40,435 bases of DNA. Origin: Candidatus Tepidifontimicrobium thermophilum. GTDB taxonomy: Bacteria > Sysuimicrobiota > Sysuimicrobiia > Sysuimicrobiales > Sysuimicrobiaceae. The position numbers and the translations under genes are program-made. The notes beneath the pieces were generated by a model, which did no database searches, was not told the origin of the DNA, and saw nothing but the letters and a program-made list of their open reading frames with translations. Position 1 is the stretch's first letter, and each line of letters begins with the position of its first letter. The stretch covers positions 1-40,435 of the forward strand of contig JAVKHO010000020.1 of assembly GCA_031459915.1 (NCBI GenBank). Reading direction: 5' to 3'. Shown here piece by piece: positions 31,155 to 40,435 of the stretch.

Positions 31155-31192
31155 AGGGTCTGTTGTTTAGGACCACCGGAGGAGGTACCTGC

Positions 31193-31654
31193 ATGTGGAG
31201 CGTACCGAGAGCCGTGACCGTCGCTACGGGTGCGGGCGAAGGGTCCACGGAGGTCAACGCCTTCGACCGGGCCCTACTGGACGCGGGGATCGCCAATTTG
31301 AACTTCCTGCGGGTCACCAGCATCCTCCCCGCGGGCGCCCGTCTGGTCCCCATGCGCCGGGTGCCGGAGGGGACCCTGATGCCCGCGGTGTACGCGCGCA
31401 TCACCAGCCACATCCCCGGGGAGCGCATCGCGGCCGCGGTGGGCGTGGGGTTCGGCGAGGACAGCTACGGGGTCATCATGGAGTACTCCCACAAGGGGAC
31501 CGCGGAAAACGCGGAGCAGATCGTCCGGCGCATGGTGCGGGAGGCGTTCGACGTCCGCGGCCTGCGGCTTCGGGAGGTCGTGGTGGGAGTCCGGGAGCAC
31601 GTGGTGGAGCGCATCGGCTGCGCGGTGGCCGCGGTGCTCCTGTGGCCGGACTGA
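31193..31654 (+). CDS. pdaD: Pyruvoyl-dependent arginine decarboxylase (153 aa)
   Basis: G.GEG.T..NAFD.ALLDAGI.NLN...VTSILP (T-S autocleavage site), YG.IME; GGAGGAGG RBS. Confidence 0.9.
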   Translation: MWSVPRAVTVATGAGEGSTEVNAFDRALLDAGIANLNFLRVTSILPAGARLVPMRRVPEGTLMPAVYARITSHIPGERIAAAVGVGFGEDSYGVIMEYSHKGTAENAEQIVRRMVREAFDVRGLRLREVVVGVREHVVERIGCAVAAVLLWPD

Positions 31655-31703
31655 GGCTCCGCTTGTCGGGGGTACATGCCGAAAGGCGTAGGAGGGAGGA
31701 GGA

Positions 31704-32546
31704 ATGACCGACTGGCTGTGGGACCACGGGGGCGAGGGATTCGCCCAGGCCTACCGGGTGGACGAGGTGCTGCTGGACCTCCAGTCTCCCTACCAGCGGA
31801 TCCGGGTCATCCGAACCCCGCTGTTCGGCCGCATGCTGATCCTGGACGACGCGGTGCAGACGTCGGAGGCGGACGAGTTCTGCTACCACGAAATGCTCGC
31901 CCACCCGCCGCTTTTCACCCACCCGCACCCCCGCCGGGTCCTGATCATCGGGGGTGGAGACGGCGGGCTCCTGGAGGAAGTCCTCAAGCACCCCGTCGAG
32001 CGGGTGGTGATGGTGGAGATCGACCGCATGGTGGTGGACGCCACCCTGCGCCACATTCCGGAGATCCCCGGCGGCGCGTTCGACGACCCTCGGGCGGAGC
32101 TGAGGATCGAGGACGGCTTCGCGTATGTGCGAAACACCCCGGAGCGGTTCGATGTGGCCCTGGTGGACTCCACCGACCCCCAGGGACCCTCGGTCCCGCT
32201 CTTCGGCGAGGCCTTCTACCGTGACCTGCACCGCGTGCTAGGCGAAGACGGTATTCTGGCGGTCCAGAGCGGTTCCCCCCTGTACCAGGCGGAACTCATC
32301 ACCCAGGTCCGGCGCAACCTGCGGCAGCACTTCCCCGTGGTGCGGACCCTGCTCACGTACGTGCCCAGCTACCCGGGCGTGCTGTGGACCTTCACCCTGG
32401 CGTCCAAGCGCCTCGACCCCGCGGAGCTGTCCGCTGACGAGGTCGACCGCCGCGTGGCCGGCTTCGGGCTCCGCTACTACACGGGCGCCCAGCACCGGGC
32501 GGCGCTGAACCCGCCGCCGTTTTTGAAGCAGGTGCTGGAAAGCTAA
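31704..32546 (+). CDS. speE: Polyamine aminopropyltransferase (spermidine synthase family, 280 aa)
   Basis: SPYQ.I, GRML.LD..VQ....DEF.YHEM, VLIIGGGDGG, VEID, VDSTDP, VPSYPG. Confidence 0.93.
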   Translation: MTDWLWDHGGEGFAQAYRVDEVLLDLQSPYQRIRVIRTPLFGRMLILDDAVQTSEADEFCYHEMLAHPPLFTHPHPRRVLIIGGGDGGLLEEVLKHPVERVVMVEIDRMVVDATLRHIPEIPGGAFDDPRAELRIEDGFAYVRNTPERFDVALVDSTDPQGPSVPLFGEAFYRDLHRVLGEDGILAVQSGSPLYQAELITQVRRNLRQHFPVVRTLLTYVPSYPGVLWTFTLASKRLDPAELSADEVDRRVAGFGLRYYTGAQHRAALNPPPFLKQVLES

Positions 32547-32561
32547 CCTGAGGGCAAACCC

Positions 32562-33410
32562 GTGGCGACGGCCTTCCTGGGCACGGGGGTCGGGGGCCCG
32601 GCCAGGGTCGCGCTGATCGGGGTGCCGTACGACCGGACCCAGTCCTTCCGCAGGGGAGCTGCGGCGGGGCCCGGCGCGGTCCGCGAGGCGTCGTGGAGCC
32701 TGGAGACGTACAGCCCCGTCCTGGAGGTGGACATGCTGGAGGCGGGAGTGCGTGACCTGGGAGACCTGGACGTGGCGGACCTGGACCCACCCGCCATGGT
32801 CCGACGTGTCCAGGAGGCGGTCGATGGACTCGCCCCAGGCGTTGTCCCGGTACTCCTGGGCGGGGACCATACGGTCACCGTGGGCGCGGTGCGGGCTCTG
32901 GCCGCCCGCTTCCCGCAGCTGCGGGCGGTGGTGTTGGACGCGCACCTGGACCTGCGCCACCACTACGAGGGGAGTCCGTGGTCGCACGCGTGCACGGTCC
33001 GGAGGCTCTGGGAAGCGCTCGGGGACGCGCGGGTGGTGCTGCTCGGCGTGCGCTCGGGCCTGAAGGAGGAGTGGGAGTTCGCCCGGCGCCACTGTCGGTG
33101 GGTGGGCGGGTCCCTGGCACTCCCGGAGGCCGTGCACGCGGAGCTGCGCGGGTACCCGGTCTACCTGAGCGTGGACTTGGACGTGGCCGACCCCGCGTAC
33201 GCCCCTGGGGTCGGGAATCCTGAGCCGGGCGGGCCTGCCCTGTCCGATGTCCTGCAGGCCCTGTACCTGCTCCGGGGCCTCCCCGTGGTTGGCATGGACC
33301 TTGTGGAGGTCGCTCCTGACCTCGACCCTTCGGGTGCCACCGCGGTAGCCGCGGCGAAGCTGGTCCGGGAGATGGTCCTGGCCTTTTGCGGTTCAGCGCC
33401 CGCCCGGTGA
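32562..33410 (+). CDS. speB: Agmatinase / aminopropylagmatine ureohydrolase (282 aa)
   Basis: GVPYD.T.SFR.G...GP..VR.AS, GGDHT, DAHLD, SHAC, S.DLDV.DP..APG.G.PEPGG, D.VEV.P. Confidence 0.92.
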   Translation: MATAFLGTGVGGPARVALIGVPYDRTQSFRRGAAAGPGAVREASWSLETYSPVLEVDMLEAGVRDLGDLDVADLDPPAMVRRVQEAVDGLAPGVVPVLLGGDHTVTVGAVRALAARFPQLRAVVLDAHLDLRHHYEGSPWSHACTVRRLWEALGDARVVLLGVRSGLKEEWEFARRHCRWVGGSLALPEAVHAELRGYPVYLSVDLDVADPAYAPGVGNPEPGGPALSDVLQALYLLRGLPVVGMDLVEVAPDLDPSGATAVAAAKLVREMVLAFCGSAPAR

Positions 33411-38748: not shown

Positions 38749-39705
38749 TCAGTCCCCCGGCGACGGCGCCGGCTCCGAGCGACGGGCGGACCGCACGGGC
38801 GTGAGCCACCCGTGGCGATCCGGCACCCGCCCGGAGACCACGTCGTAGAACGCCTTCTGGACCTTCTCCGTCACGGGCCCGCGTCGGCCGGCACCCACCG
38901 GGATCCGGTCCACGCTCCTGACCGGTGTGATCTCCGCTGCGGTGCCCGTCAGGAAGATCTCGTCCGCCAGGTACAGCATCTCCCGCGGCAGGGAGACCTC
39001 CCGCACCTCGTAGCCGAGCTCCCGCAGGAGGGTGATCGCCACCTGCCGCGTGACCCCGGGCAGGATGGAGTGGGCCAGGGAGGGCGTGTACACCACGTCG
39101 TCCCGCACCACGAACACGTTCTCCCCGCTGCCCTCGCTGACATGCCCCTCCACGTCCAGGGCGATGGCCTCCGCGAAACCCCCGTCCCGCGCCTCCATGG
39201 TCATGAGCTGGGAGTTGATGTAGTTGCCCGCGATCTTGGCCATGGCGGGGTGGGTGGCAGGCGCCATGCGCCGCCACGTGGACACCACCACGTCCACCCC
39301 CTGCTCCAACGCCTCGGGTCCCAGGTAGGCGCCCCACTCCAGGGTCAGAATGGCGACCTCCGTCGGCGCCTTCCGAGGATCCAGCCCGAACGCGCCTGCT
39401 CCCCGGTAGACCAAGGGGCGGATGTAGCACGCACGGTGCTCGTTGTACCCCACCGTCTCCAGGATGGCCTGGCTGATCTGGTCGGGGCTGTAAGGGACCT
39501 CCATGCGGAAGACCCTGCAGGAGTCGAACAGGCGGCGGACGTGGGCTCCCAGGCAGAACACCGCGGGGCCCTGCGGGGTGTCGTACGCCCGGATCCCCTC
39601 GAACACGCTGCTCCCGTAGTGCAGGGCGTGGGCCGCCACGTGGACCGTGGCCTGCTCCCACGGCACCATCTTGCCGTTGTGCCACACGTACCGCCCCGGT
39701 GTCAT
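38749..39705 (-). CDS. ilvE: Branched-chain amino acid aminotransferase (318 aa)
   Basis: HALHYGS.VFEGIRAY, YIRP, AK..GNYINSQL, SEGSGEN.F, ILPG.TR, DEIF.TGTAAE.TP. Confidence 0.96.
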   Translation of the reverse strand: MTPGRYVWHNGKMVPWEQATVHVAAHALHYGSSVFEGIRAYDTPQGPAVFCLGAHVRRLFDSCRVFRMEVPYSPDQISQAILETVGYNEHRACYIRPLVYRGAGAFGLDPRKAPTEVAILTLEWGAYLGPEALEQGVDVVVSTWRRMAPATHPAMAKIAGNYINSQLMTMEARDGGFAEAIALDVEGHVSEGSGENVFVVRDDVVYTPSLAHSILPGVTRQVAITLLRELGYEVREVSLPREMLYLADEIFLTGTAAEITPVRSVDRIPVGAGRRGPVTEKVQKAFYDVVSGRVPDRHGWLTPVRSARRSEPAPSPGD

Positions 39706-39749
39706 GCGTCCCTCCCCTGCGGCCCAGCGGCCGAATAGACCTGCTCCTC

Positions 39750-39789
39750 AAAGCCGCGAGCCTCCGCCCGCCAAGGGACGGAGGCTCGC
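39750..39789 (-). terminator. T-box terminator hairpin
   Basis: GCGAGCCUCCGUCC-CUUGGC-GGGCGGAGGCUCGC (14 bp, one G.U) followed by GGCUUU; overlaps the antiterminator 3' strand; U-tract is weak. Confidence 0.65.
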
Positions 39790-39818
39790 CTCCGCGGTAC
39801 CACCCTCGTTGGCAAGTT

Positions 39819-39894
39819 TGGTGGAGCCAAGGGGACTCGAACCCCTGACCTCGTGCATGCCATGCACGCGCTCTCCCAGCTGAGCTATGGCCCC
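39819..39894 (-). tRNA. tRNA-Ala (anticodon GGC), CCA encoded
   Basis: GGGGCCATAGCTCAGCTGGGAGAGCGCGTGCATGGCATGCACGAGGTCAGGGGTTCGAGTCCCCTTGGCTCCACCA: 76 nt, full cloverleaf, G3.U70 alanine determinant, GTTCGA T-loop. Confidence 0.97.
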
Positions 39895-40080
39895 AGACCT
39901 GCCCTCTTGAAGCCCTTCACGCGGGCTGACGGCACCGGCTACCCCGCCTCGCGGATCGCCGGCGCGGCTCCCCGGGCGAGTTCTGCCGGGCTCCGGCTCC
40001 CCGGTCCCACCGCCCGGGGTCGCTGGCCAGCTTGGCCCGGCATACTACTCCCGGTCCTCGCCACCTCCATCCGTCCCCCA

Positions 40081-40110
40081 AGTATACGGAAGCCCCCGCG
40101 GGGGCGTCAA
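40081..40110 (-). promoter_or_regulatory. sigma70 promoter of the T-box/tRNA/ilvE-leuS transcript
   Basis: TTGACG (40110-40105), 18-nt spacer, TATACT (40086-40081), about 18 nt before Stem I. Confidence 0.8.
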
Positions 40111-40371
40111 AGCCGCCCGGGGATGAGAGCACAAGTGCTCCCACAGGCCCCCTTTCGTGCACCAGGGTTCTCCCCTGGTTCGCCCCCTCCCCCTGTGCCT
40201 CCCCCTGCCTCCCCTCCGTGGTTGTGTGGTGAGGTGATGGATGGTGGGTGGTCTGCGTTGTTTGTTCTGGTGGTATCGGGCGCCTTGGGCGGTTTTAGGC
40301 CCCTGGTGGGTTTCACAGGTCCCCCTTTTCTGGGCTTAGGGGGCCTTCTTCCTGGTGCTGGGGGGCTGTGT

Positions 40372-40387
40372 TGGCACGCAATTTGCT
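40372..40387 (+). promoter_or_regulatory. Putative sigma54 promoter facing out of the window
   Basis: TGGCACGCAATTTGCT matches consensus TGGCACG-N4-TTGCW. Confidence 0.7.
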
Positions 40388-40435
40388 CCACAGGCGCACC
40401 CCCATCCCGTCCCCTCTGGGTGTGGGCTTAGGGGG

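Follow-up and report, generated by a model that had tools for sequence, protein, structure and literature searches.

A tRNA-Ala(GGC) gene nested in Stem III of a leucine T-box leader

The tRNA-Ala(GGC) gene of Candidatus Tepidifontimicrobium thermophilum lies inside the Stem III loop of a leucine T-box riboswitch, in the leader of ilvE-leuS. In the window, as we call the whole 40,435-nt stretch analysed here, the structural features tested mark this leader as a T-box, the U-tract of its terminator being weak, and all features tested for a tRNA gene are likewise present. We consider it probable that one transcript serves as riboswitch and as pre-tRNA, doing two jobs that are loosely coupled. 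That a single RNA plays both parts had been proposed in a first-pass annotation, and it gains support from the sole Ala(GGC) gene of the genome, from its one promoter, from stranded reads that run on into ilvE and from conservation with covariation in several phyla. In what follows, G000 is the window's genome, other Gnnn labels denote compared genomes, Lnnn loci and Xn metatranscriptome runs.

On re-reading the sequence, all coordinates claimed by the first-pass annotation held. On the minus strand, the leader runs from a promoter through Stem I, Stem II, the Stem IIA/B region, AAGAG, GGCAGGU, CU, the tRNA, A, ACUUGCC and AA to an antiterminator with UGGUACC, a terminator hairpin, ilvE and leuS (Table 1). 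The RRRxG–Stem III–AA motif is thus present as AAGAG–stem–AA around the tRNA. TTGACG-18-TATACT is the sole sigma70-like site in 39600-40435 (shuffles gave 0.1 ± 0.3), in keeping with the earlier remark that no separate tRNA promoter is visible, and transcription would start near 40074. The RF00230 alignment upholds a canonical Stem I with a Leu specifier CUC, which agrees with the downstream ilvE-leuS; the UGGU of the bulge is complementary to the ACCA end of tRNA-Leu(GAG), a gene for which is encoded at G000:C23:40177-40261. CCGUCA, singled out in the first-pass annotation, is the start of Stem IIA, and the CCGUUA-type box aligns to GCGUGA at 39922-39917.

Table 1. Positions in the window of the parts of the nested leader and of the two genes that follow it
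Feature	Position	Strand	Basis
sigma70-type promoter TTGACG-18 nt-TATACT	40081..40110	-	promoter scan; RNA depth begins just below
T-box leader RF00230, full-length match around tRNA	39771..40067	-	46 bits, E 9e-9
Stem I: GA motif, AG bulge, GGUG loop, specifier loop	39967..40061	-	Rfam alignment, fold
specifier codon CUC (Leu), for tRNA-Leu(GAG)	39978..39980	-	Rfam alignment; CUC in homologues
Stem II	39932..39965	-	Rfam alignment, fold
Stem IIA/B region	39912..39931	-	Rfam alignment; pseudoknot pairing by eye
AAGAG, 5' purine flank (RRRxG) of Stem III	39904..39908	-	sequence; motif per available text of PMC11404447, PMC7778990
Stem III 5' strand GGCAGGU	39897..39903	-	Rfam alignment, fold, covariation
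tRNA-Ala(GGC), 76 nt, G3:U70, A73, CCA encoded	39819..39894	-	ARAGORN, Rfam
Stem III 3' strand ACUUGCC, then AA flank 39810-39809	39811..39817	-	Rfam alignment, fold, covariation
antiterminator, bulge UGGUACC at 39802-39796	39772..39808	-	-19.4 kcal/mol; Rfam alignment
terminator hairpin (39789-39776 with 39769-39756) and short tail, three U	39750..39789	-	-34.0 kcal/mol
ilvE, branched-chain amino acid transaminase, 318 aa	38749..39705	-	TIGR01122 409.5 bits, cut-off 245.55
leuS, leucine-tRNA ligase, 826 aa	36255..38735	-	TIGR00396 984.5 bits, cut-off 548.4

The match to RF00230 spans model positions 1-219, and the tRNA falls out of it as a loop precisely where Stem III lies. Its 46 bits lie below the gathering score of 93, which is a curation threshold and no structural feature; only 1 of the 13 T-box matches in this 71% GC genome is at or above that score, and an Rfam scan at gathering level misses the window T-box, which E-value mode reveals. 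Natural tRNA-free Leu T-box leaders of related genomes score 57-80 bits. Alignment and fold energy agree on the proposed pairing of GGCAGGU with ACUUGCC as a Stem III whose loop is the tRNA: with Stem III, the fold energy of the cloverleaf falls by 9.0 kcal/mol, from -31.7 to -40.7, and the stem forms in a folded 97-nt piece at 37 and 65 °C. Unconstrained whole-leader folds at 37 °C gave other pairings, with neither Stem III plus terminator nor the canonical antiterminator. The claimed antiterminator and terminator stood in part, as both hairpins fold and the terminator is the stronger (-34.0 versus -19.4 kcal/mol), but the U-tract consists of just three U and the terminator scan called none. 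Weak U tails are also found in several of ten other T-box matches of this genome.

Around the leader, positions 40111-40435 of the window form a purine- and C-rich stretch with short repeats that runs to the contig end and is unique in the genome; its place is taken in related genomes by the end of a protein gene. Three ORFs at 31163-33410 resemble, by eye, arginine decarboxylase, spermidine synthase and agmatinase, an ordinary polyamine cluster. Elsewhere in G000, the end of C16 (G000:C16:39013-39241) repeats part of a T-box at the start of C32 (G000:C32:282-556), probably an assembly overlap.

Both ARAGORN and Rfam call the nested gene Ala(GGC), at 63.6 bits against an RF00005 gathering score of 29. 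Alanine identity depends on G3:U70 and A73, plus a CCA end, and G3:U70 and A73 are present in the window tRNA. Among 49 tRNA calls, a search of the genome for tRNA-Ala(GGC) genes returned the nested gene and no other. The demand for it is considerable: in 495 long ORFs selected with a GC3 heuristic, GCC accounts for 43.8% of the alanine codons and for 5.2% of codons overall. RNase P RNA is encoded in this genome. An Ala(GGC) pattern applied to 50 carrier genomes (50 of 111 candidates, one row being the unpublished G081) matched in 48, in 45 of them once; the second matches in the other three were no tRNA, a near-duplicate nested locus and a free tRNA. The nested copy is the sole Ala(GGC) gene in 46 of the 48 matching genomes, a count in which copies can be missed because the pattern missed a known tRNA in 2 of the 50. 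A gap of 2 nt separates Stem III from the first base of the tRNA in the window, which may hinder RNase P. We rejected U at tRNA position -1 as a sign specific to nesting, given that it occurs in 106 of 146 nested loci but also in 28 of 32 other Ala(GGC) loci. The genome's tRNA calls also include two tRNA-SeC and one tRNA with an unresolved anticodon (C5:39873-39964, C16:8039-8131, C7:76084-76172).

The nesting extends well beyond this genome. As had been suggested, T-boxes were crossed with tRNAs across genomes, using a GTDB scan for any tRNA T-arm and CCA 3-33 nt before a T-box core, a pattern blind to tRNA type. It returned at least 120 stretches. Among the matches listed, ARAGORN found a tRNA in 117 of 120, and 113 of these 117 were Ala(GGC), the remainder being Pro, Val, Gly and Met. 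All 113 nested Ala(GGC) loci among the matches listed carry G3:U70 and A73, 110 have CUC in specifier context (by regular expression), and 96 are followed by leuS (94) or ilvE (10); 14 of the 17 with neither gene had less than 350 nt of downstream DNA. The UGGN bulge in these loci is no test, because the scan pattern required that box. When 16 of the 113 Ala loci were chosen by hand to represent different taxa, all 16 gave a full RF00230 match around the tRNA, at 50-131 bits and in 8 cases above gathering; 0 of 4 non-Ala loci did so.

Judged by record titles among the matches listed, the nested layout occurs in at least five phyla. Carriers include Bacillota (Syntrophomonadaceae, Peptococcaceae, Thermacetogeniaceae), Chloroflexota, Atribacteria, Coprothermobacterota and one Solirubrobacterales bin, with further bins titled Armatimonadota or Candidatus Fervidifonticultor, titles that may be wrong; Thermosyntropha lipolytica, Desulfofundulus thermosubterraneus, Desulfotruncus alcoholivorax, Tengunoibacter tsumagoiensis and Dictyobacter arantiisoli are cultured carriers. 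A metagenome scan for nested tRNAs lacking C36, restricted by its pattern to those with GCTCAG and a variable loop of 5 nt, turned up 10 matches, and a T-box was absent from all of them. Viral contigs held no nested match, and no plasmid record covers 80% of the leader. In five loci (L041, L045, L089, L096, L104), another tRNA gene, which is Ala-CGC in L041 and L045, precedes the T-box promoter and lies 260-390 nt upstream of the nested tRNA. Between the nested T-box and leuS of L069, L283 and other Limnocylindria/Chloroflexia loci there is a 211-aa ORF resembling, by eye, a GNAT acetyltransferase.

Covariation was assessed on 146 loci (152 minus 6 duplicates, as GTDB hits and relatives overlap), 135 of which were anchored on RAGNG and AA irrespective of pairing. 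Stem III pairs 1-5 are formed in 84, 86, 87, 77 and 83% of the 134-135 anchored loci, against strand-swap means of 72, 71, 58, 49 and 59%, and each observed value exceeds the maximum of 500 swaps. Pairing in the true register is 79%, compared with 35-38% in slid registers; the first anchor position is unpaired in 22 of 135 loci, partly through anchoring error. When 15 short-linker loci chosen by hand were aligned with MAFFT, 4 of 6 Stem III pairs showed two-sided changes, and the four tRNA stems were 100% paired, with all 21 pairs kept in 15 of 15 rows and two-sided changes among them. None of 500 shuffles reached the covariation score of this alignment; swap and shuffle controls overstate significance because kin share sequence. 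A duplex-energy test was weak, a locus's own flanks beating the swapped mean in 128 of 146 cases but 95% of shuffles in only 44. Both the nesting and the Stem III covariation that the first-pass annotation had suggested looking for among relatives are present, with pairing above controls in the 135 anchored loci.

Inserts of several kinds accompany the nested tRNA. In five loci (L198, L201, L208, L209 and L210, of G060, G021, G024, G066 and G067), related palindromic repeats of 50-110 nt lie between the tRNA and the Stem III 3' strand with the T-box intact, and two of these carry the repeat before the tRNA as well; Rfam reads G060 as an intact T-box with a long insert. The nested leader L023:1533-1900 (G016) has ~250 extra nt between tRNA and T-box core, comprising an inverted T-arm piece and a direct repeat of the tRNA 3' end, and these nt resemble a scar left by integration within the Stem III loop.

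Within the phylum, we tallied 73 genomes at least 85% complete (the unpublished G023 and G053 counting as one row each) using two complementary patterns, the second of which catches tRNAs with G37. The gene is nested in an intact Leu T-box in 39 of the 73 (G013 classed by eye), and two more loci, cut by a contig end, are consistent with nesting. Seven genomes (G004, G006, G007, G008, G010, G011 and G051) have an eroded T-box, with no RF00230 match at E 0.1, and retain the tRNA before a hairpin and ilvE. Five (G029, G038, G047, G048 and G023) are un-nested: the tRNA, with its own promoter, stands upstream of an ordinary tRNA-free Leu T-box followed by ilvE-leuS, and in G029 a second promoter lies ~85 nt past the tRNA. 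A free tRNA-Ala(GGC) is found in 16, of family f4; in the 12 f4 genomes checked (one contig-cut), the 1.5 kb upstream of leuS held no T-box core. Both genes could be placed in 10, and in 6 of these leuS lies 3.6-17 kb downstream of the tRNA on the same strand. The patterns found no tRNA in the remaining four. In family f1, identity to the window tRNA is 96-100% (98.7-100% in six eroded genomes), and eroded 5' leaders measure 55-139 nt, down from 186.

A quick LeuS tree of 43 rows, from which G023 was omitted, places the free, un-nested and eroded rows inside nested lineages. Nesting is therefore probably ancestral in the phylum; the root state of this tree is biased, as all six outgroups come from nested loci. 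An IlvE tree (43 rows) puts eroded f1 genomes in at least two places among intact ones. Un-nesting requires one to three events on the LeuS tree and may have proceeded by leader duplication and reciprocal loss. The un-nested, eroded and free states indicate that T-box and tRNA are separable and that the tRNA is real, and relatives with separated parts show that neither needs the nesting. Islands integrating at the tRNA were considered as the cause of the split f4 leader and found unsupported, 0 of 15 intervening ORFs scanned matching an integrase; the sole hint of integration at the tRNA comes from partial tRNA repeats in G016, G037 and G072. Single loci have features of their own. L237 (G051:C76, ~1950-2150) has cleanly lost Stems I and II and reads promoter, ~20 nt, tRNA-Ala(GGC), intact antiterminator/terminator, ilvE; L168, L169 and L170 (G011, G008 and G010) keep a hairpin with 5-6 U between tRNA and ilvE-leuS after T-box loss, in which case leuS may be expressed past a leaky terminator or by another promoter; and at L239 (G047:C14:25160) the gene after leuS is itself LeuS-like, with 63% identity across 96 N-terminal aa.

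These states bear on whether the embedded tRNA is ever released. A tRNA kept in place, as a structural domain or acting in cis on the antiterminator, would draw on the paper complementarity of its 3' ACCA to the UGGU bulge and on the proposal, in the available text of PMC12990946, that a GOLLD-embedded tRNA is kept from maturation. We think this very unlikely: the anticodon GGC mismatches CUC, the CCA is internal until cut, the gene is the sole Ala(GGC) gene in most carriers, the tRNA is unchanged after T-box loss, and kin have tRNA-free Leu T-boxes ahead of the same operon.

Metatranscriptome reads came from X1 and X8, and none from X6 or X7. In X8 (raw, 95 reads), first mates fell nearly all on the plus strand, which in most stranded libraries denotes minus-strand RNA. 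The RNA signal begins in bin 40026-40076 in both runs. In X8, coverage is nil at 40077 and above; the 5' leader has a depth of 3.8-7.9, the antiterminator and terminator 3.0-3.5 and ilvE 3.9-11.1, and the peak on the tRNA bins is mostly other organisms' tRNAs. X1 contributes a 454-nt contig over 39483-39936, free of mismatches, that spans the tRNA and antiterminator and reaches into ilvE. Contig depths in X1 are ~500-1000 for the leader, 191 for the spanning contig and 27-44 for ilvE, leader contigs thus being more than 10x deeper than ilvE contigs, in a run where contig depth is flat and DNA may be present. Together, these data support a single transcript that starts at the predicted promoter and continues across the tRNA into ilvE. 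As for attenuation, X1 hints at it, and X8 shows no leader excess. Neither run lists RNA start or end peaks at the locus, at low depth, so the reads do not bear out the idea that an RNase P cut gives ilvE-leuS a new 5' end.

The same reads help to judge two less favourable accounts of the locus. Lying 540 nt from a contig end in a 33-contig assembly, it might be an assembly chimera or a set of chance neighbours; the mismatch-free RNA contig that crosses it, and the same layout in 39 of 73 phylum genomes and in cultured isolates of other phyla, exclude a chimera and leave this reading a practically negligible probability. The T-box could, alternatively, be weak or vestigial here, in a leader that is mainly a tRNA gene with a leaky terminator before ilvE-leuS. 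That would fit the three-U tail, an X8 leader no deeper than ilvE and the loss of the T-box in 3 of 8 same-genus genomes and three more of the family. It seems quite improbable, however, as all T-box marks are intact in the window genome and in G001, G002, G003 and G005, the X1 leader contigs are far deeper than those of ilvE, and weak tails are common among this genome's T-boxes.

According to the available text of PMC11404447 and PMC7778990, uncharged tRNA binds the T-box specifier and UGGN bulge, Stem III and its purine flanks form a discriminator, and described Stem III loops have 4-10 nt; that of PMC11404447 adds that only the Stem III termini matter, so the tRNA occupies the tolerant slot. 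For the two-job transcript that we favour, we infer control by tRNA-Leu, termination, and the route and timing of processing. The single promoter would give a single leader RNA, the CUC specifier of which would bind tRNA-Leu(GAG) in trans. Pairing of the ACCA of uncharged tRNA-Leu with the UGGU bulge would hold the antiterminator and permit read-through into ilvE-leuS, and with no uncharged tRNA-Leu the terminator would form. Carried in the Stem III loop, where only the helix base and purine flanks should matter, the tRNA-Ala(GGC) would have left the polymerase before the switch is decided, during transcription and ~60-70 nt past its CCA, so that cutting should come after switching. Release of the tRNA by RNase P and 3' trimming would occur on terminated and read-through RNA alike, and the Stem III strands could, to judge by the fold, stay paired for some time after cutting. 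Terminated (Leu-replete) leaders had been put forward as the source of tRNA-Ala; as put, this is not supported, because the tRNA lies 5' of the terminator and read-through RNA carries it too. The tRNA would thus be made in both switch states, and its supply should not depend on leucine state. On balance, the tRNA would track promoter output and leuS would be under leucine control, with discarded leaders giving a needed tRNA.

A closer bond between the two jobs is credible, if unlikely. The processing of the riboswitch could itself be part of the switch: Stem III would clamp the 5' leader to the 3' trailer, and that clamp or tRNA-Leu binding would gate and time RNase P cleavage. Cleavage might equally act in control, splitting Stem I from the antiterminator, freeing the bound tRNA-Leu and setting the 5' end or half-life of the ilvE-leuS mRNA; we assign the two forms one joint, minor share of the probability. 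Among the matches listed, only Ala(GGC) is nested, only in a Leu T-box, and this is kept across phyla; no other tRNA class is nested, the ten metagenome matches all being without a T-box; the tRNA starts 8-13 nt past the Stem III anchor in 82 of 135 loci; and, per the available text of PMC7913692, leader cleavage sets mRNA stability in S. aureus met and B. subtilis thrS. Against this, T-box and tRNA have come apart on several occasions while leuS stayed intact (5 un-nested, 7 eroded and 16 free among 73 genomes), the 3' linker from CCA to AA flank varies from 2 to 114 nt in kin, and one ancient origin would account for the Ala/Leu pairing without function. If such a switch did exist, leucine charging would bear on how tRNA-Ala matures, on where leuS mRNA begins and on how stable that mRNA is, through an old device conserved in several bacterial phyla.

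On the looser, favoured reading, too, the arrangement matters. T-boxes are treated as tRNA sensors, not sources; here a tRNA in heavy use comes from the leader alone, which obliges the cell to get the order of folding, switching and cutting of a single RNA right. Nesting puts to a natural test the view that Stem III matters structurally only at its base, and it reveals a T-box slot able to carry a cargo of 76 to more than 250 nt. Ready-made controls exist within the phylum, where the same operon is preceded by nested, un-nested, eroded or free arrangements. In annotation, a tRNA call that overlaps a T-box call may be taken for a conflict and filtered out. The nesting is real, conserved and, as far as searched, undescribed: a search of open full-text papers yielded no description of a tRNA gene within a T-box, which does not prove its absence from print.

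Among known systems, the enterobacterial thrU-tyrU-glyT-thrT-tufB operon has tRNAs and an mRNA sharing one promoter, with termination between them. Its tRNAs stand in series and no riboswitch helix encloses them; the eroded relatives described here (promoter-tRNA-terminator-ilvE) resemble that arrangement. With the transcriptional T-box (RF00230, B. subtilis glyQS type), as far as available descriptions go, the leader shares Stem I and specifier, Stem II, IIA/B, RRRxG-Stem III-AA, the UGGN bulge, the antiterminator with a terminator hairpin, in the window followed by just three U, and a cognate synthetase gene downstream. It differs in that the Stem III loop is a whole tRNA gene, for another amino acid and the genome's only one of that anticodon. 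Stem Sa of the staphylococcal glyS T-box is likewise a conserved lineage-specific insertion in a working T-box, but, in the available text of PMC9177973, it is a 42-nt hairpin in the antiterminator/terminator domain, with no gene and no processing substrate. GOLLD RNA with tRNA-Phe also has a tRNA gene inside a larger structured non-coding RNA (available text of PMC12990946, citing PMC7549688), whereas GOLLD is a large phage-linked RNA of unknown function with no tRNA-sensing switch and a tRNA in some members only (PMC12990946, same text); positions 39500-40435 of the window gave no Rfam match to GOLLD at E up to 10. Finally, in nuclease-cut leaders, exemplified in the available text of PMC7913692 by S. 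aureus met (cut by RNase III), B. subtilis thrS and riboswitches cut by RNase P, a cut that follows the switch decision can determine how stable the downstream mRNA is, as it might here; in those cases the leader is lost to the cut, whereas the cut proposed here would release a functional tRNA.
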